A stretch of DNA of 28,326 bases from a virus (taxonomy: Duplodnaviria; Heunggongvirae; Uroviricota; Caudoviricetes): the IMG/VR virus record IMGVR_UViG_2529292734_000016; one strand, written 5' to 3'. Within the stretch, counting starts at the first letter, position 1. Each line of letters starts with the position of its first letter. Position numbers and translations under genes: made by a program. The notes beneath the pieces were generated by a model, which was not told where the DNA came from, made no database searches, and saw nothing but the letters and a program-made list of their open reading frames with translations. This document shows, piece after piece, positions 5,232 to 27,950 of the stretch.

Positions 5232-5512
5232 AGCGGACAGACCGCCCTTACAAGCCGCAGTCATGATGCTACCCCGAGTCTCAATGAGAGCCAGATGCAG
5301 GTCCAAACTGCAATACGCGCTGGTGAGGGTTAACGAAGAAAAAGGCGTACCGGTACTCCAGAGCGATCGCCAGTCGCTCACCGGTTAGAGGTGAGGGATT
5401 CATGAGATACCCCTGACTACAGACTCAAGGGCATGAGCGCGGCCACTGCGAGAGTGTGGTTTATAACCGCTAAAAAATTTATACTCCATGGGCATTGAGC
5501 ATGGAGGGTTGA

Positions 5513-5920
5513 ATGAAACTAGATATCGATTATTTAAAGTCGTTCTTAGCTTTATTTTTAGAATCTGAAAATCCATTTGTTTCGACAGATGAGTTGGCTA
5601 AAGCCGGTTACGATATTTCAGATGCTGTTGGATATTTTCACTACACCCAGCTAATTGAAAAAGGATTCGTGAGTACCTTGGATCTCAGGACGGGCAACCC
5701 AAAAGAGTTGGGATTAGTATTTTCTACAAATAGCATCACAAGCTGGTCTACTTACATCAGGCTAACTTCAAGCGGATATGATTTTGCATTGTCATTAAGT
5801 AAGCCGGATGTTTTTGAAAGATTGAAAGAGTTGAGCAATGAACCCATCGGGGTTTTGAAGGATGTTGGTGTTGAATTGCTTAAGTCTTATGCCAAGAAGA
5901 AGCTTGGTTTATCTGATTAG
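5513..5920 (+). CDS. Hypothetical protein in an AT-rich single-gene cassette
   Basis: 135-aa ORF in a visibly AT-rich block with candidate -10 TATACT at 5480-5485, GGAGGG RBS and a downstream intrinsic terminator. Confidence 0.55.
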   Translation: MKLDIDYLKSFLALFLESENPFVSTDELAKAGYDISDAVGYFHYTQLIEKGFVSTLDLRTGNPKELGLVFSTNSITSWSTYIRLTSSGYDFALSLSKPDVFERLKELSNEPIGVLKDVGVELLKSYAKKKLGLSD

Positions 5921-16189: not shown

Positions 16190-18014
16190 ATTTGAGCTTA
16201 AGGCGTTGATCACCGGTGTCGACAGGCTTTCTCCCGCGCTGTCGAAAATGCAAAAGAAAATCCGGGGATTTAAACGCCAGGCGGAAGAAGCGTCACAGGG
16301 TGGGCTGGCGCTTGGTGGCGGACTGGCAGCGGGTCTGACGCTTTCCCTGAAATCTTATGCCGATCAGGAAAACGCCGCCACCGGGCTGAAAGTCGCCATG
16401 ATGGATGCGAATGGCGAGGTTGGAAAGAGCTTTCAGGACATCAATAAACTGGCTATTGGCCTGGGTAACCAGCTACCCGGTACAACGGCTGATTTCCAGA
16501 ACATGATGCAGATGCTGGTGCGTCAGGGGATCCCGGCAGAAAACATTCTGGGTGGTGTGGGTAAAGCAACAGCTTATCTTGCGGTACAACTGAAAAAAAC
16601 ACCGGAAGCGGCTGCTGAGTTTGCTGCAAAGATGCAGGATGCTACCGGAACGGCGTCAGAAGACATGATGGGGCTGTTCGACACTATCCAGAAGGCGTTT
16701 TATCTGGGCGTTGACGATACCAACATGTTGTCCTTCTTCACTAAAACCAGCTCTGTTCTGAAGATGGTGAACAAGGATGGTCTTCAGGCTGCACAGAGCC
16801 TTGCCCCCATCAGCGTCATGATGGATCAGATGGGGATGAACGGGGAGTCGGCAGGTAATGCCCTGCGAAAAGTTATCCAGTCCGGATTAAGCGTTAAGAA
16901 AATCAGGGACGTTAATAAAGTTATGGCCCGCCAGAAACTCGGGGTACAGCTCGATTTTACTGACGGCAAAGGAAGTTTTGGCGGTCTTGATAACATGTTC
17001 AGGCAACTGGCAAAGCTGCGAAAACTGACCGACGTTAAGCGAACAGGTGTACTTAAGGCAATATTTGGTGATGATGCCGAAACCCTTCAGGTGGTCAATG
17101 CACTAATCGATAAAGGAAAGGATGGCTACGATCAGATCCAGCAGAAGATGAATAAACAGGCCAGCCTGAATAAACGTGTTCAGGCACAGCTTGGTACGCT
17201 GTCCAACCTGTGGGAGGCAATGACAGGGACCGCAACTAACGGCCTTGCGGCTATTGGCGGCGCATTTTCTGGTGACGCTAAAAATATCACACAATGGCTG
17301 GGGGAGTTGGGGGAGAAATTCACGAAGTTTGCGGATGAAAATCCCCGGGTTATTCGCGGCGTCGTCGGGCTTGCTGCCGGTCTTGCGATTCTGAAACTGG
17401 GATTGATGGGCGTGGGCAGTGCCATCAGTATTGTCAGCAGGATTATGTCGATGACGCCGATTGGCATGATTGCGACGGCGATTGCTCTGGCTGCGGGATT
17501 AATTATCACTAACTGGGATGTTGTCGGACCTTATTTCAAGAAGCTCTGGGAAACCATTGGTCCTTATTTTGAGGCAGGTTGGGAACTTCTGAAGAAGGTT
17601 TTTGCCTGGTCGCCGCTTGGGATGGTGATCAATAACTGGGGACCGGTTGTTAAGTGGTTTCAGGATATGTGGGATAAGCTGAAGCCGATTATTGAATGGT
17701 TTACCGACAGTTCCGGTGACACGGTCGATGCCATTAACTCGGCGCAGTGGGGCGCGGGTGCTTATGATGCTTATGGGACGGGAATACCGCCACGGGGATA
17801 CACTCCTTATCCGGTAGTGGATCCGGCTCAGGCAAACAACGCCTCCGATGCCACAGGCTCGAATCCCTTCATGATTAACAAAGCTTCTGTGCCAAAAGTT
17901 GATGGTGAGATCAAGGTATCTTTTGTGAATTCGCCTCCGGGTATGCGGGTTATGGAAACGCGATCCAGCGGTTTTGATGTCAGCCATGATGTTGGCTATA
18001 CGCGGTTCAGGTAG
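16182..18014 (+). CDS. Tail tape measure protein
   Basis: 610-aa protein with a Gly/Ala-rich hydrophobic segment, located after the chaperone pair. Confidence 0.85.
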   Translation: MAEFELKALITGVDRLSPALSKMQKKIRGFKRQAEEASQGGLALGGGLAAGLTLSLKSYADQENAATGLKVAMMDANGEVGKSFQDINKLAIGLGNQLPGTTADFQNMMQMLVRQGIPAENILGGVGKATAYLAVQLKKTPEAAAEFAAKMQDATGTASEDMMGLFDTIQKAFYLGVDDTNMLSFFTKTSSVLKMVNKDGLQAAQSLAPISVMMDQMGMNGESAGNALRKVIQSGLSVKKIRDVNKVMARQKLGVQLDFTDGKGSFGGLDNMFRQLAKLRKLTDVKRTGVLKAIFGDDAETLQVVNALIDKGKDGYDQIQQKMNKQASLNKRVQAQLGTLSNLWEAMTGTATNGLAAIGGAFSGDAKNITQWLGELGEKFTKFADENPRVIRGVVGLAAGLAILKLGLMGVGSAISIVSRIMSMTPIGMIATAIALAAGLIITNWDVVGPYFKKLWETIGPYFEAGWELLKKVFAWSPLGMVINNWGPVVKWFQDMWDKLKPIIEWFTDSSGDTVDAINSAQWGAGAYDAYGTGIPPRGYTPYPVVDPAQANNASDATGSNPFMINKASVPKVDGEIKVSFVNSPPGMRVMETRSSGFDVSHDVGYTRFR

Positions 18015-18113
18015 TGTACAAAATGATTAATGTGTTTTTGTCTGGCATAATTTGGGTTTTCAGCTTTAAGTAGTTAATATAATCATTCCTTACAAATGAT
18101 TGAAGGGATGATT

Positions 18114-18608
18114 ATGCGTATCTTTGTTTTTTTTATATCTGCACTTTTATCTTTTAACTTGGCCGCGGAGGAGTGTAAGTTCAGCTTTAATGAGTCAGAA
18201 TTAATCTCTTCTATAGGTATTGCACCAGTTAAGCAAGAGATAATAAAGGATGAAGGAATAACTAAGCGGCAATATGAATTCAGAAGAGAATTATCTTCTG
18301 AAGAAATGCTTAGTGATGACGCTGATGAAAAATATGAGCCGCAGTTTTATATATCTGTTTATAATCCATCATGCCCACAAAAGGTTATTGTTTGGTTTTT
18401 CAAAGACAATAAAAACACAATGGATTTAAGTAATGAGGTCCTTGCTGGTAGAGCGTTCAAGTATTTAACTGGTGTTAATGAAAGTATTTTTGAAAATAAA
18501 ATGAAAAAGTTTTTAAAGGTACAGTCATTTGAATCTTTTGATGAAAGGACAGATTCTAAATTTATAAAGAGTGGTGATATTTATTCCATTGATGTTCAAC
18601 TCAGATAG
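18114..18608 (+). CDS. Secreted hypothetical protein in an AT-rich moron-like cassette
   Basis: ATG at 18114 with GAAGGGA upstream; Sec-type signal peptide (MRIFVFFISALLSFNLA/AEEC); visibly AT-rich, Lys/Glu/Asn-rich coding region unlike the flanking tail genes. Confidence 0.55.
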   Translation: MRIFVFFISALLSFNLAAEECKFSFNESELISSIGIAPVKQEIIKDEGITKRQYEFRRELSSEEMLSDDADEKYEPQFYISVYNPSCPQKVIVWFFKDNKNTMDLSNEVLAGRAFKYLTGVNESIFENKMKKFLKVQSFESFDERTDSKFIKSGDIYSIDVQLR

Positions 18609-18627
18609 TAATTAAAAATATTAGGTT

Positions 18628-18685
18628 CCCGCCACATCTTCTGCGATGTAAATAACTGACAAAGCAGATTTGGCGGGTTTTTTGT
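18628..18685 (+). terminator. Putative terminator after the secreted-protein cassette
   Basis: CCCGCC ... GGCGGG stem with a long structured loop, followed by TTTTTTT. Confidence 0.35.
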
Positions 18686-18698
18686 ATCCGGAGTTTAT

Positions 18699-20027
18699 AT
18701 GACGTGGAAAGACAGGCTTCAGGATGCGTCATTTCGCGGCGTACCGTTTAAGGTTGAAGAAGAAAGTGCGGGAACCGGTCGCCGTGTGGAAACACATGAA
18801 TACCCGAACCGCGACAAGCCCTATACCGAAGATCTGGGAAAAGTCACTTTCCGCCCGTCCATCACAGCTTATGTGGTGGGAGATGACTGCTTTGACCAGC
18901 GCGATCGCCTGATTGAAGCGCTGAATAAACCCGGTCCCGGCACGCTTGTCCACCCGACATATGGTGAGCTGAAAGTCTGTGTTGACGGGGAAGTTCGGGT
19001 CAGCACATCGAAGAGTGAAGGGCGTATTGTCCGCTTTGACCTGAAGTTTGTCGAAGCAGGAGAACTCTCTTACCCCACATCAGGTGCGGCGACGGCGCAG
19101 ACGCTGATGTCATCCTGTTCTGCACTGGATGACTGCATCAGTGACAGCTTCAGCGGTTTCAGTATCGATGGTGTGGCGGATTTCGTGCAGAACGACGTTA
19201 TCGGTAATGCCAGCATAATGCTGGGGTATGTTTCTGATGCGATGAAAGTGGTGGATTCTGCCGTATCGGATGCCGCCAGGCTGTTGCAGGGGGATATCTC
19301 GGTACTTCTGCCGCCGCCATCGTCAGGCAAAAATTTCGTTGAGCAGGTGCAGAAAATGTGGCGTACCGGGAAACGCCTTTATGGTAACGCCAGCGACCTG
19401 GTCACCATGATCAAAACGCTTTCCGGTGTCAGCCTCGGCAGCGATCTGCAACCGCGCGGCGTCTGGAAAACGGACAGTAAAACCACCGCCACGGCGACGC
19501 AGCAGCGTAACGTGGTTGCCAGCACCCTTCGTACGACCGCAATCAGCGAAGCGGCGTATGCCGTCACCCGATTGCCTGCGCCAACAACTTCCGCGGTGAT
19601 GCAGAATTCCGCAGTGGGGCAGGCAACAACACCTGCGCAGAGCACTGGCTGGCCTTCCGTCACGCATCCGGCACTGAACAATGCACCGGCGGTGAAAAAC
19701 ACAGTTGACCTGCCGACGTGGGAAGAACTGACTGACATTCGCGACACACTGAATACGGCAATTGATAAGGAGTTGTCCCGTACAACCAGTGATGCGCTGT
19801 TTCTGGCGCTGCGCCGGGTGAAAGCAGATCTGAATGCGGATATCAACACGCGCCTTGAACAGTCTGCACGGATCATTCAGCGCACGCCGGATGAGGTTTT
19901 ACCCGCGCTGGTGCTGGCGGCGACCTGGTTTGATAACGCGGCGCGTGATGCGGACATTATCCGGCGTAATGCCATTACGCATCCCGGCTTTGTGCCGGTG
20001 ATCCCTCTGAAGGTGCCAGTGCAATGA
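18699..20027 (+). CDS. DNA circulation protein (Mu gpN-like)
   Basis: N-terminal WKDRLQDASFRGVPF motif and position after the tape measure. Confidence 0.75.
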   Translation: MTWKDRLQDASFRGVPFKVEEESAGTGRRVETHEYPNRDKPYTEDLGKVTFRPSITAYVVGDDCFDQRDRLIEALNKPGPGTLVHPTYGELKVCVDGEVRVSTSKSEGRIVRFDLKFVEAGELSYPTSGAATAQTLMSSCSALDDCISDSFSGFSIDGVADFVQNDVIGNASIMLGYVSDAMKVVDSAVSDAARLLQGDISVLLPPPSSGKNFVEQVQKMWRTGKRLYGNASDLVTMIKTLSGVSLGSDLQPRGVWKTDSKTTATATQQRNVVASTLRTTAISEAAYAVTRLPAPTTSAVMQNSAVGQATTPAQSTGWPSVTHPALNNAPAVKNTVDLPTWEELTDIRDTLNTAIDKELSRTTSDALFLALRRVKADLNADINTRLEQSARIIQRTPDEVLPALVLAATWFDNAARDADIIRRNAITHPGFVPVIPLKVPVQ

Positions 20028-24205: not shown

Positions 24206-24799
24206 TTGGGGGTTCAGGCATTTGGATCATCTGGGACTTATATCAAATCACCTGATGTAACGAAAATTATAGTGGAAGCCGTTGGCGGAGGTGGTGCCAG
24301 TGGTAATTTGTCGGCAACTGCATCTGGTAACTGTGGTGTAAGTGCTGCCGGTTCCAACGGGGCATATGCTAAAGCATTTTTTTATCAGTCTATACCTGAA
24401 TCCGTGCAAGTAACTATTGGAAGCGGTGGTGTAGCAGGAACAGGACCAGGAGGCTCTGGAGGTGACGGCGGGAATACAAGCTTTGGTGATTTGCTTGTAT
24501 GTCCGGGAGGAAGGGGATCAACTCAAGTTCAGCAGGTACCTCCATTTTCAGGGGGAAGTGCAACAGAAGCACCAATTCCTACAGGGCAAGGGATTCTGTT
24601 CCATTCAGTTTCACGATCAAATTTATGTGGGGCACTTGGACTTGGTGATGATCAGGCGATTGGCGTTGAAAGTATAACCACTACTATGCTTGGGATATAC
24701 GGTATTGGCGGGACAGGTAAATACAATAAGGCGTCATCAGGTCCAGCGACAGGAAATAATGGAAATCAGGGATATATTCTTGTGTGGGAGTATCAGTAA
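24206..24799 (+). CDS. Glycine-rich putative tail-fibre distal / receptor-binding protein
   Basis: TTG start (no in-frame ATG before it; in-frame stop at 24146-24148); Gly/Ser/Ala-rich runs (GGGGASGN, GSGGVAGTGPGGSGGDGGN); AT-rich region. Confidence 0.45.
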   Translation: MGVQAFGSSGTYIKSPDVTKIIVEAVGGGGASGNLSATASGNCGVSAAGSNGAYAKAFFYQSIPESVQVTIGSGGVAGTGPGGSGGDGGNTSFGDLLVCPGGRGSTQVQQVPPFSGGSATEAPIPTGQGILFHSVSRSNLCGALGLGDDQAIGVESITTTMLGIYGIGGTGKYNKASSGPATGNNGNQGYILVWEYQ

Positions 24800-25005
24800 T
24801 GAGCGATATTTATGCAGTCGTACAAAATGGTGTCGTTACAAATCTTGTTGTATGGGATGGTAAGTCAGAGTTTAAGCCAGAAAAAGCGGATATGGTTAAA
24901 TGTGTTGGAGATGTTGGTATTGGCTGGTCATATGACGGTGAAAAATTCATTAAGCCTTCCTTAAAACCAGATGTAGTTACTCCTCAAGATGAGTTAGTCA
25001 GTTAA
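24799..25005 (+). CDS. Small hypothetical protein coupled to the Gly-rich gene (possible fibre accessory protein)
   Basis: TAATG stop/start overlap at 24797-24801; 68-aa product; followed by a terminator. Confidence 0.35.
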   Translation: MSDIYAVVQNGVVTNLVVWDGKSEFKPEKADMVKCVGDVGIGWSYDGEKFIKPSLKPDVVTPQDELVS

Positions 25006-25014
25006 TTGCTAGTA

Positions 25015-25049
25015 CGCTGGAGATTTTGATAATTTCCAGCGCATTTTTC
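25015..25049 (+). terminator. Intrinsic terminator ending the late operon
   Basis: CGCTGGA ... TCCAGCG stem followed by CATTTTTCC. Confidence 0.45.
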
Positions 25050-25416
25050 CTTCTGCAGTAATGGATGAAATACCGCGAGTATAATGTTTTTATGCATATG
25101 AACCGTTTAAACCAGAGGAATCCTGACGAAATTGGTTATTGCGCCGAGAGTTGTCGGAGGGGGTGATATAGGTTATCTAATGGAGTAATCATTTTAACAT
25201 TAATCAGTTTCCCCATGACATCCTCTAAACCCTATATAAACGATTTCCTGCTACTGGCATTCAAACGAAATAATTTGAAAGCAATTTAAAGAGTTATTTG
25301 TCTAATGTTGGAAGCCGCAGCCACGTCGTATGCAAGAACGTGCTGCGGCTGGCTGGCGAACTTTCGATAGTGCGAGTATTGAATGATTTCCAGCCGTTAC
25401 CGATTTTACGTGTTAA

Positions 25417-25665
25417 TTAGTGAACAAACCACTCGTCAGCAGATTCCCAGGTATCTTTCAGAGTCTCCTGAACAAAAGTTTTTGCAGAATCCTTATCTGC
25501 GGTGCGTGTAACAGAAAGGCTATCGTTGCTGGTGGCTTTTACGATCACCTCTACATCGTCATAACGTTTACTGATGCGTCGGGTTAATTCTTCCTTTAAC
25601 GCATCCACAGCACCGGTTGGCATTTTAGTCATTTTTTCTTTGGCTATGCAGATTTCAATACGCAT
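25417..25665 (-). CDS. DinI-like DNA-damage-inducible protein (prophage-encoded)
   Basis: 82-aa product starting MRIE and ending [10 protein letters not shown], a DinI-family signature; GAGGGA RBS; LexA boxes in its upstream region. Confidence 0.8.
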
Positions 25666-25678
25666 AAAAGTCCCTCTA

Positions 25679-25698
25679 TACTGTGTTTGTATACAGTA
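25679..25698 (-). promoter_or_regulatory. LexA box (SOS operator) 1: TACTGTGTTTGTATACAGTA
   Basis: Exact CTGT-N8-ACAG with consensus flanks, 14 bp upstream of the DinI-like start codon. Confidence 0.7.
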
Positions 25699-25706
25699 TT
25701 ATTTTT

Positions 25707-25726
25707 AACTGTATGGATAAACAGTG
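25707..25726 (-). promoter_or_regulatory. LexA box 2: AACTGTATGGATAAACAGTG
   Basis: Second CTGT-N8-ACAG palindrome 8 bp from box 1, abutting the integrase stop codon. Confidence 0.6.
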
Positions 25727-26824
25727 TCAAGAGGTCTTATTTCTGCTCCTTTGGAGCTCTTCAAAACGATTATGTAAAGATTTCGGATACAGTTCGGTAT
25801 ATACCTGCCATAGCACGTTTAATGAACGATGCCCTGTAACCTGGGCGACTTCCTCAATACTAAAACCAGCCTCAAATAAGCGACTTGCCCCTTCTCTACG
25901 CAAATCATGGTATCGCAGATCCTTAATACCTAATTTGCTTCTTACCCTCTGAAATCCCGCAGTAACAGAAGTGCTGTTATATGGAAAAATGAATTCCGAT
26001 TTTTGGGGCTGTCGTTGGACGATATCCCAGGCTTCCCCAAGCAAGGCTACTTTCATGTGGTTGCCTTCCTTTTTGCGTGGGTCTTTCCTGTCTCTTACGA
26101 GTATAGATTTTTGTTCCTGGTCGAGATCTTCCCATCGTAACCGGCATACTTCTCCGATTCGCATACAGGACCACACAGAAAATTTGAGGATATCAACGAA
26201 CGGAATTTTTGAGCATTTATGAGTAGATCGTTGTTGAAGGCCTTCAATGAGCAGGTCCAGTTCATCAGATGCTGGTCTACGATTACGACGGTTTGATTTA
26301 CCAATCAAACCAAGTTTAAGTAGATATGGACGAGCACTTTTCGCCGGGTTTGATGTGTAATTAATTCCGTATACAGGTTTGGCCGCATCCAGAACACTGC
26401 CAAGATAACTAACATCGTGGCTGACTGTTGCTGGACCTGCGCCAGCGTTGTTTCTTAGCCTGCAATGTTCAATTACGTCATTTTCTGTCAGTTCAGATAG
26501 TTTGATCGCGGATATGTCACTATCCATAAGCAGTTCCAGCACATATCTTTTAGTACGGCCTGCTTTACCTCCGGCATTTGGGTCATTTAAATATTTGTGT
26601 AGTAAGTCACGGACTGTAAGTCCGTCAACTGCATTTGATGATGGAATGCCATATAGATCTAATTCCATCACTTTCTGTGTGCCCCATGTTTTGGCATGAG
26701 CATGTTTAGGGAATGTTTTGCTTTCCCTGTAAGTGATAACACCTTTTTCTTTGATAATCACATTACAGCGATAGCGTGGTGTGCCATCGGATTTTAGTCG
26801 TTTCTCTATGTTATAGTACGCCAT
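25727..26824 (-). CDS. Tyrosine-type site-specific integrase
   Basis: 365-aa protein whose C-terminal region has the spaced Arg/His/Tyr catalytic pattern (RIGE...HDLRR...Y) of phage integrases; divergent from and adjacent to dusA. Confidence 0.9.
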   Translation of the reverse strand: MAYYNIEKRLKSDGTPRYRCNVIIKEKGVITYRESKTFPKHAHAKTWGTQKVMELDLYGIPSSNAVDGLTVRDLLHKYLNDPNAGGKAGRTKRYVLELLMDSDISAIKLSELTENDVIEHCRLRNNAGAGPATVSHDVSYLGSVLDAAKPVYGINYTSNPAKSARPYLLKLGLIGKSNRRNRRPASDELDLLIEGLQQRSTHKCSKIPFVDILKFSVWSCMRIGEVCRLRWEDLDQEQKSILVRDRKDPRKKEGNHMKVALLGEAWDIVQRQPQKSEFIFPYNSTSVTAGFQRVRSKLGIKDLRYHDLRREGASRLFEAGFSIEEVAQVTGHRSLNVLWQVYTELYPKSLHNRFEELQRSRNKTS

Positions 26825-26912
26825 TACACGACCTCGTTATTTCGGGTTCCCATAAAACGTGGGAACCTGTGCGGGAACCTAACGCGAGAAAAATAGCCTG
26901 AAATGTTCAAAA

Positions 26913-27950
26913 ATGCACGATAATCATGAAACACAAAAAATTAATCAAACCAGCGTGATGCCTGAAAAAACTGGTGTTTACTGGAATTCTCGGTTTAGCA
27001 TTGCTCCTATGCTCGACTGGACGGACAGACATTGCCGCTATTTCTTGCGTCTGCTTTCCCGCAATACGTTGCTGTATACCGAAATGGTGACCACAGGGGC
27101 GATTATTCACGGTAAAGGTGATTACCTGGCGTACAGTGAAGAAGAACATCCGGTAGCGTTGCAACTCGGCGGTAGCGATCCGGCGGCGCTGGCACAGTGT
27201 GCGAAGCTGGCAGAAGCGCGTGGATATGATGAGATCAACCTGAATGTCGGCTGCCCGTCTGACCGGGTGCAGAACGGCATGTTTGGTGCGTGTCTGATGG
27301 GTAATGCGCAGCTGGTTGCCGACTGTGTGAAAGCGATGCGCGATGTGGTGTCGATTCCAGTGACGGTGAAAACGCGTATTGGCATCGATGACCAGGACAG
27401 CTATGAATTTCTCTGCGATTTCATCAACACTGTTTCCGGCAAAGGCGAGTGTGAGATGTTTATCATCCACGCACGTAAAGCCTGGCTTTCGGGGTTAAGC
27501 CCGAAAGAAAACCGTGAAATCCCGCCGCTCGATTATCCGCGTGTGTATCAACTGAAGCGTGACTTTCCGCATCTGACAATGTCGATTAACGGTGGTATCA
27601 AGTCGCTGGAAGAGGCCAAAGCACACCTGCAACATATGGATGGCGTGATGGTCGGGCGCGAGGCGTATCAGAATCCGGGTATTCTGGCGGCGGTAGACCG
27701 GGAGATCTTTGGTTCCTCGGATACCGATGCCGATCCGGTGGCGGTAGTGCGCGCCATGTATCCGTACATTGAGCGTGAACTCAGCCAGGGGACGTATCTC
27801 GGCCATATTACCCGGCATATGCTGGGTTTGTTCCAGGGTATTCCTGGCGCGCGGCAGTGGCGGCGTTATTTAAGTGAAAATGCCCATAAAGCGGGTGCTG
27901 ACATTAACGTGCTGGAACACGCGCTCAAACTGGTGGCGGATAAGCGTTAA
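26913..27950 (+). CDS. dusA: tRNA-dihydrouridine synthase A
   Basis: TIM-barrel Dus motifs ([28 protein letters not shown]); followed by pspG as in enterobacterial chromosomes. The true start may be the internal ATG at 26958 (MPEKTG). Confidence 0.85.

Follow-up and report, generated by a model that had tools for sequence, protein, structure and literature searches.

The locus

The DNA considered here (IMG/VR record IMGVR_UViG_2529292734_000016, 28,326 nucleotides (nt), hereafter the window) is an SfV-like Escherichia coli prophage that combines an HK97-type head with a Mu-type contractile tail. Our subject is a small gene within its tail module, which encodes a precursor protein of 164 amino acids (aa) and lies in the 684 nt that separate the stop codon of the tape-measure gene (18014) from the ATG of the DNA-circulation gene (18699). 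We call it the cargo gene, and the interval that holds it the slot (Table 1). The tape-measure label is also the one given to the left-hand neighbor in RefSeq and in the annotation of Escherichia phage SKA5, and the DNA-circulation protein is 98% identical to its SfV orthologue. As set out below, the cargo gene is a moron in the wide sense of the word, an accessory gene that is optional and non-structural and that occupies a fixed slot of SfV-like temperate phages. It is thus an uncharacterised gene of a well-known kind, namely the moron or accessory gene of a tail operon, placed in a hotspot.

The segment between the two neighbors (18015-18698) is the stretch of lowest G+C content (GC) in the window, with 31% compared to 51-56% in the flanking genes. 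Windows of 300 nt have GC of 0.30-0.34 over positions 18000-18700 and of 0.49-0.56 on either side, and third codon positions follow the same pattern: the cargo open reading frame (ORF) has 31.7% GC and a third-position GC (GC3) of 0.27, against 51.3% and 0.56 in the tape-measure gene and 56.1% and 0.60 in the DNA-circulation gene. A preliminary description, made from the sequence alone, had remarked on this AT-rich stretch among GC-rich tail genes, and both measures bear it out. The region around the slot is 99% identical to phage SKA5, and the 684-nt segment matches E. coli strain TL20 at 100%.

Table 1. Features of the slot and its borders in the window, followed by the contents of the same slot in related loci (fractions refer to the survey of 80 IMG/VR loci).
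Feature	Position or occurrence	Strand	Remarks
Tape-measure gene, 610 aa	16182..18014	+	Left slot border; Pfam PhageMin_Tail, E 1e-26
AT-rich leader (intergenic) upstream of cargo ORF, 99 nt	18015..18113	+	28% GC
Perfect -10 hexamer TATAAT, candidate promoter	18078..18083	+	30 nt 5′ of the ATG
Ribosome-binding site GAAGGGA	18102..18108	+	5 nt before ATG 18114
Cargo gene, 164-aa precursor	18114..18608	+	RefSeq WP_001219112.1; PHROG 8976
Predicted signal peptide, residues 1-18	18114..18167	+	MR / IFVFFISALLSF / NLAA, cleavage before EEC
Terminator-like hairpin followed by T6	18628..18683	+	Just 5′ of the DNA-circulation gene; fold z = -2.1
DNA-circulation (Mu gp43/N-like) tail gene	18699..20027	+	Right slot border; Pfam DNA_circ_N, E 4e-34
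Slot empty	39/80 loci
176-aa protein, N-terminal membrane or signal segment	19/80 loci; L017:2436-2966		PHROG 5485; in 179 complete genomes
Window-type cargo gene	8/80 loci
Membrane-anchored OB-fold protein (PF12869)	5/80 loci	opposite	Four intact (L050/L055 type) and truncated L107
Divergent homologue of the OB-fold protein	1/80 loci (L108)	opposite	OB-fold type (L050/L108): minus strand, ~330-780 nt upstream of the DNA-circulation start
Cytoplasmic bPH_1 protein (PF08000)	2/80 loci (L104)
Another Sec-signal protein, 162 aa	1/80 loci (L098)
IS66 fragment	1/80 loci
SfIV-like tape-measure end, no cargo gene	1/80 loci (L101)
Too short to score	3/80 loci
225-aa lipoprotein, LLGGC lipobox	L016:2299-2976		PHROG 1353; in 55 complete genomes

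An optional gene in a polymorphic slot

The preliminary description raised the question of whether the insert is absent from related prophages, and in many of them it is. In SfV, SfI, and SfII, only about 45 nt separate the tape-measure gene from the DNA-circulation gene. In a survey of 5426 complete E. coli genomes, the DNA-circulation gene was found in 1091 (about 20%), an empty junction of the SfV type in 540, and the cargo insert in 85, with identities of 95-100%. Two isolated phages carry a member of the family, SKA5 and the Pantoea phage AH07. Because the gene is lacking from the viable phages SfV, SfI, SfII, and SfIV, and 540 genomes have an empty junction, the cargo protein must be dispensable, and hence non-structural. 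A structural or assembly role in the tail was rejected on these grounds, and also because the slot is empty in 39 of 80 IMG/VR relatives.

Those 80 loci were chosen for a DNA-circulation protein 98-100% identical to that of the window, and they show that the slot is not reserved for one gene. About half of the E. coli slots are empty, and the others hold at least six unrelated types of cargo (Table 1). Profile comparison of the window family with two of the other occupants revealed no relationship between them, and PADLOC returned no match for any of the six types. The other types are also AT-rich (34-42% GC), and five of the six carry N-terminal sequences for envelope targeting, the bPH_1 protein being cytoplasmic. 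The slot is therefore a cargo hotspot for mutually exclusive, unrelated, and mostly envelope-directed genes. SfV-like tail modules are present in around a fifth of the complete E. coli genomes, and roughly half of these modules have an uncharacterised gene of one of several, mostly envelope-targeted types at this position.

In the Atlantibacter relative L011, two additional genes without Pfam matches (506 and 93 aa, L011:7980-9778) lie between the DNA-circulation and baseplate hub genes, so that the tail module varies at a second place as well.

The cargo protein

The start of the ORF is taken at 18114. An alternative ATG located upstream, at 18096, would yield a protein of 170 aa; the RefSeq entry, like the homologues, begins at MR instead. 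After these two residues comes a hydrophobic core of 12 residues, IFVFFISALLSF, and then LAA followed by EEC, in an n-h-c layout. All of the phage homologues keep this layout, their residues varying but position -1 being Ala and position -3 one of V, A, S, T, I, or L. Judged by rules and conservation, this is a Sec-type signal peptide, as had been proposed. The homologue alignment, however, places the predicted cleavage after Ala18 (Leu16 at -3, Ala at -1), one residue later than the site after NLA suggested before. A lipobox of the form [LVI][ASTVI][GAS]C with Cys at +1 is absent, the first cysteine being at +3 of the mature protein (...NLAAEEC), and a lipoprotein was rejected for this reason. 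We thus predict a protein exported by Sec, with a soluble periplasmic mature form of around 146 aa. In its broad form, the earlier view of the gene as exported cargo is strengthened by the conservation of the signal peptide in phage homologues.

Two cysteines, Cys21 and Cys87, are invariant in all of the phage homologues, and a periplasmic disulfide between them in the exported members would fit the data. The only non-phage member of the family (P0023, L026:5001-5471) is an AT-rich gene of 156 aa, directly downstream of a gene for a 1079-aa autotransporter and near YqeI/YqeJ-like regulators. This paralogue has neither a signal peptide nor Cys21, and the loss of the two together is what one would expect if the predicted disulfide formed in the periplasm.

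The cargo gene is a real gene under purifying selection. All four substitutions that separate it from the SKA5 allele are synonymous, and the ratio of non-synonymous to synonymous rates (dN/dS) is 0.11-0.18 in comparison with more distant E. coli alleles, for an overall range of 0-0.18. Among homologues that are 55-66% identical, 39 alignment columns are invariant. AlphaFold2 produces an alpha/beta model with a mean local confidence (pLDDT) of 88 and a predicted template-modelling score (pTM) of 0.80, in which only residues 1-20 are of low confidence. These observations bear on the simplest alternative, in which the gene would be a functionless passenger, an AT-rich remnant left in a slot that tolerates insertions. 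It is true that the slot accepts many unrelated inserts, a fragment of IS66 among them, and that about half of the slots are empty. Nevertheless, the dN/dS values already disfavor such a passenger, and the invariant columns, the retention of both signal peptide and cysteines in homologues with as little as 27% identity, and the confident structural model all point away from it, so that we regard it as extremely improbable.

The preliminary description could not assign the protein to a known family, and neither could we. The match to PHROG 8976 runs end to end (E 3e-107), but the function of this PHROG is unannotated. Pfam and NCBIfam gave no match, whether to YebO (gp15-like), Ivy, MliC, PliC, PliG, any immunity family, or anything else, and PADLOC-DB 2.0 gave 0 families at E up to 1. 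Foldseek found nothing in the PDB below E 0.05; a match to DcrB was discarded as meaningless (TM score 0.22), as were the partial matches of a sequence profile search of the PDB, which were spurious (NDUA7, TIR-STING). In BFVD there was one match, A0A8S5RVB8 from a gut siphovirus (TM score 0.63, 13% identity), whose label, "ABC transporter periplasmic binding protein", is uninformative. The family is very small: a word-indexed search gave 16 clusters at 90% identity, and HMMER, run exhaustively against 1.84 billion proteins, gave 12 representatives at 50% identity and no link to any known family.

Linkage to the tail module

All of the phage homologues that we found (27-66% identity) lie between PhageMin_Tail and DNA_circ_N genes. 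They come from genomes of Kosakonia, Atlantibacter, and Kluyvera, from several metagenome contigs, and from the Pantoea phage AH07, and the most distant of them, with 27-36% identity, occupy the same slot and keep the signal peptide and the cysteines. Furthermore, the identity between cargo proteins tracks that of their neighbors; over pairs that are not independent, the Spearman coefficient is 0.54 with the tape measure and 0.80 with the DNA-circulation protein. In each of nine lineages the gene is AT-rich (GC3 0.25-0.42 versus 0.46-0.64 in the flanks). As the cargo gene is AT-rich throughout and diverges together with its flanks, its low GC is a maintained property and not evidence of recent import, and a recent foreign insertion was rejected because of this co-divergence. 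The preliminary description had presented the segment as acquired cargo; it is indeed extra DNA of deviant composition, but the constancy of the slot and the co-divergence down to 27% identity speak against a single or recent acquisition. More generally, the locus advises caution in reading low GC as a sign of recent acquisition: here, a gene with 32-40% GC sits beside tail genes with around 50% GC and has stayed AT-rich while co-diverging with them to as little as 27% protein identity.

Within this common history, the cargo protein diverges about 1.5 to 2 times faster than the flanking proteins. For instance, in loci L006 and L010, the tape measures are 93% and the DNA-circulation proteins 89% identical, while the cargo proteins are only 60% identical. 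Such discordance fits diversification or allele swapping, as in an arms race. Fast divergence, together with the small size, the predicted periplasmic location, and a conserved pair of cysteines capable of forming a disulfide, would also suit an inhibitor of a cell-wall hydrolase or toxin, comparable to T4 Spackle, Ivy, MliC, or PliC, or an orphan immunity protein against effectors or bacteriocins that act in the periplasm. However, the Pfam and NCBIfam searches described above gave no match to Ivy, MliC, PliC, PliG, or immunity families, and the tape-measure protein shows no recognizable peptidoglycan-hydrolase domain (PhageMin_Tail only), so we consider an inhibitor of this kind very unlikely.

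The family never leaves the tail module, in hosts that range from the gut to plant leaves, which suggests a function aimed at phage biology over one aimed at the host environment. In particular, the strict link to one type of tail speaks for a role directed at phages, of which exclusion would be an example, and less for one in toxicity or virulence directed at the host. This matters because lysogenic-conversion factors are well known, with lambda Bor, Lom, and prophage SodC as precedents, and it is conceivable that the cargo protein is another, altering envelope physiology, stress tolerance, colonization, or virulence of the host. The gene is AT-rich, its product is predicted to be exported, it occurs in clinical, avian, and livestock E. 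coli, it may have a promoter active in the lysogen, and its chromosomal paralogue sits beside an autotransporter gene. The model also bears a weak resemblance to PAS/PDC-like folds, which are typical of extracytoplasmic ligand-binding domains. Nonetheless, one would expect such a factor to move between phage types and positions, whereas this family is confined to one slot across several genera of differing lifestyles, a plant-leaf Pantoea phage included, and its distant members have no promoter of their own. We therefore think it unlikely that the gene serves host fitness.

Expression of the cargo gene

The hexamer, ribosome-binding site, 164-aa ORF, and hairpin that the preliminary description listed are all present as described. 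What they amount to is another matter. The leader differs at only two or three of its 99 positions among E. coli variants, whereas the same alleles have a synonymous divergence (dS) of 0.16 in the ORF and 0.11 in the tape-measure gene, so the leader is conserved beyond the synonymous rate. The -10 hexamer is perfect, as had been noted, but its best -35 partner is poor (TTTTCA, with a 15-nt spacer), and a consensus promoter scan called no promoter in this region. Nor is TATAAT enriched: there are five copies in the window, where 8.1 are expected, and a second one lies within the ORF at 18360. Similar hexamers are located at 31-35 nt from the ATG, on its 5′ side, in the homologues L006 and L011 and in front of two other cargo types, L016 and L017, both of which have an extended TG; none was found at this distance in the homologues L004 and L010. 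The Escherichia-proximal lineage has gained an upstream region of 72-134 nt, with -10-like elements, and conserves it. In the distant homologues, the ORF starts 15-17 nt past the tape-measure stop, with a ribosome-binding site only. This spacing excludes a promoter of their own and implies co-transcription with the tail operon. Thus, the proposal that the gene has its own promoter retains some plausibility near Escherichia and fails for the distant members of the family.

The hairpin has a GC-rich outer stem of 7 bp (18628-18634/18671-18677), a structured loop of 36 nt, and a run of six T (18678-18683). The length of the loop is the reason why a terminator scan misses it. With its inner stem, this loop represents an expanded form; at this position, relatives have a canonical CCCGC-TTCG-GCGGG followed by T7 or a hairpin equivalent to it. 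In the four E. coli alleles that were compared for this type of cargo, the 90-nt downstream region shows at most two differences and is identical in two. Rfam gave no match in the window. A hairpin with a T-run lies directly before the ribosome-binding site of the DNA-circulation gene in every locus with homologous or alternative cargo that we examined, and also at the empty sites of SfV and SfII, where the SfII annotation lists a rho-independent terminator. Its presence at empty sites and after all of the other cargo examined indicates that it belongs to the phage backbone and not to the cargo. We consequently rejected a terminator owned by the cassette, and with it the earlier idea of a self-contained unit. 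Instead, the cargo is flanked by the tape-measure stop and by a hairpin already present in the backbone, at which transcripts born in the slot would end.

As defined by Juhala and Hendrix and restated more recently (PMC3594210), a moron is extra DNA of deviant GC, with its own promoter and terminator, that is expressed from the repressed prophage. The cargo gene is extra DNA, in that the genes on its two sides adjoin each other in its relatives, and its GC is deviant; its promoter is a candidate one, and the terminator, being part of the backbone, is not its own.

The architecture also invites a different reading, in which the protein would be a helper of the lytic cycle. Made late and exported, it could mask or alter a receptor or the envelope, or tune envelope breakdown at lysis, without protecting the lysogen, following a logic like that of T5 Llp, in which progeny phages escape capture by debris and dying cells. 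The ORF follows the tape-measure gene without an intervening terminator, the distant homologues are co-transcribed with the late genes at a distance of 15-17 nt, and the link to one tail type is strict. On the other hand, the Escherichia-proximal upstream region with its -10-like elements suggests expression outside the late operon, lysis genes are located elsewhere in the genome, and in about half of the related prophages the slot is empty. A purely lytic helper thus seems to us about as improbable as a host-fitness factor.

A possible role in superinfection exclusion

Of the functions that can be proposed, we put forward the exclusion of other phages, to which we give somewhat less than an even chance. 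By analogy with known systems, the mature protein of around 146 aa may block, from the periplasm, genome delivery by phages with an SfV-like type of tail. During lytic growth, transcription of the tail operon would continue through the gene, as no terminator intervenes after the tape-measure gene. In the Escherichia-proximal lineage, it might also be expressed in the lysogen from the weak promoter in the conserved 99-nt leader, with the transcript ending at the backbone hairpin. Exported by Sec and oxidized in the periplasm, the protein could act there as a superinfection-exclusion factor or entry blocker, hindering phages with the same tail type at the point where their genomes are delivered across the periplasm. 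Its target might be the tail tip, the conduit formed by the tape-measure or DNA-circulation protein, or a host envelope factor that these need. As a result, the lysogen or infected cell would be protected and the progeny spared a wasteful injection. The other occupants of the slot, being mostly envelope-directed, count in favor of such a role, as does the linkage of the family to one tail module.

Several systems offer points of comparison. In HK97, the gp15 moron of the tail operon (Juhala et al. 2000; Cumby et al. 2012), located beside the tape-measure gene, prevents incoming genomes from entering, an effect that depends on the tail of the arriving phage (reviewed in PMC3594210). The cargo protein resembles gp15 in being a small, envelope-directed protein, encoded by extra DNA of deviant GC next to the tape measure and optional among relatives. 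However, gp15 is a YebO-like inner-membrane protein of a siphovirus, and its gene lies upstream of the tape measure, whereas the cargo protein is predicted to be soluble and periplasmic, and its gene lies downstream of the tape measure in a phage with a contractile Mu-like tail. There is no sequence similarity between the two (no Pfam match), and the exclusion activity of the cargo protein is putative.

Surface-exposed lipoproteins of the Ltp type mediate superinfection exclusion (PMC3952083), and the tape-measure conduit is a recognized target at the injection step (PMC13190303). With TP-J34 Ltp, T5 Llp, and Cor of phi80, N15, and T1-like phages, the cargo protein shares a signal peptide, a predicted extracytoplasmic location, and a gene linked to the tail or receptor-binding module. 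TP-J34 Ltp targets the tape measure, and the genes for T5 Llp and Cor adjoin the tail genes whose function they counter, Cor being an inactivator of FhuA. Unlike these lipoproteins, the cargo protein has no lipobox, and we detected no sequence or fold similarity to them; one of the alternative occupants of the slot is, as they are, a lipoprotein.

As for the slot itself, variable loci of P2-like phages were reportedly described as hotspots for accessory and defense genes by Rousset et al. in 2022. Our slot resembles them in its fixed position in the late region and in the mutually exclusive, unrelated, AT-rich cargo found across isolates. Most of the cargo in P2 hotspots consists of cytoplasmic defense systems that are present in PADLOC, while here none of the six types is in PADLOC and five of the six are targeted to the envelope.

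A number of observations weigh against exclusion. The protein resembles none of the known exclusion proteins in function or structure, and searches of the literature by accession, PHROG number, and phage name revealed no functional study of the family. (A paper on mEpimmI phages was set aside, as these are siphoviruses and not SfV-like.) The promoter is weak, lineage-specific, and not conserved across the family, and the distant members are purely operonic, which points to late expression, unusual for a function that protects lysogens. Co-variation with the tape-measure allele is loose, as illustrated by the 93% and 60% identities in L006 and L010. Finally, the signal peptide was called by rules and conservation and not by a trained predictor, and the disulfide is a prediction from sequence and not from coordinates.

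It is tempting to go further and to suppose that the cargo protein founds a family of periplasmic exclusion proteins that is linked to the tail module, has a fold not found in the PDB, and blocks genome delivery by contractile tails of the Mu and SfV types, the junction being a previously undescribed hotspot that swaps envelope-acting anti-phage genes. We consider this wider proposal rather doubtful. If the occupants were indeed entry-stage exclusion factors, the slot would be a compact source of periplasmic anti-phage proteins that catalogues of defense systems have missed, given that PADLOC has no match for them, and this would have a bearing on the host range of phages used for therapy in E. 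coli and Shigella.

Other features of the prophage

The window and the corresponding region of strain TL20 (L019) are collinear in blocks only. The offset shifts between matching blocks, and many 25-mers of positions 1-28326 are unmatched, which makes the prophage a mosaic with respect to its closest database match. No gtr genes for O-antigen modification were seen among the ORFs examined. A second island of low GC (38-40%) occupies positions 5401-5920, with the region of the KilA-N/ORF11CD3 gene on one side and genes for an HNH endonuclease and terminase on the other. It contains an ORF of 135 aa (5513-5920) without a Pfam match, which could be a further moron. The right end of the prophage (24600-27950) includes a stretch of low GC that has few long ORFs. 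There, a DinI-like gene (25417-25665) and a tyrosine integrase gene (25727-26824) lie on the minus strand and are followed by a gene for a Dus-family tRNA-dihydrouridine synthase (26913-27950), which suggests that the prophage is integrated next to a dus gene.

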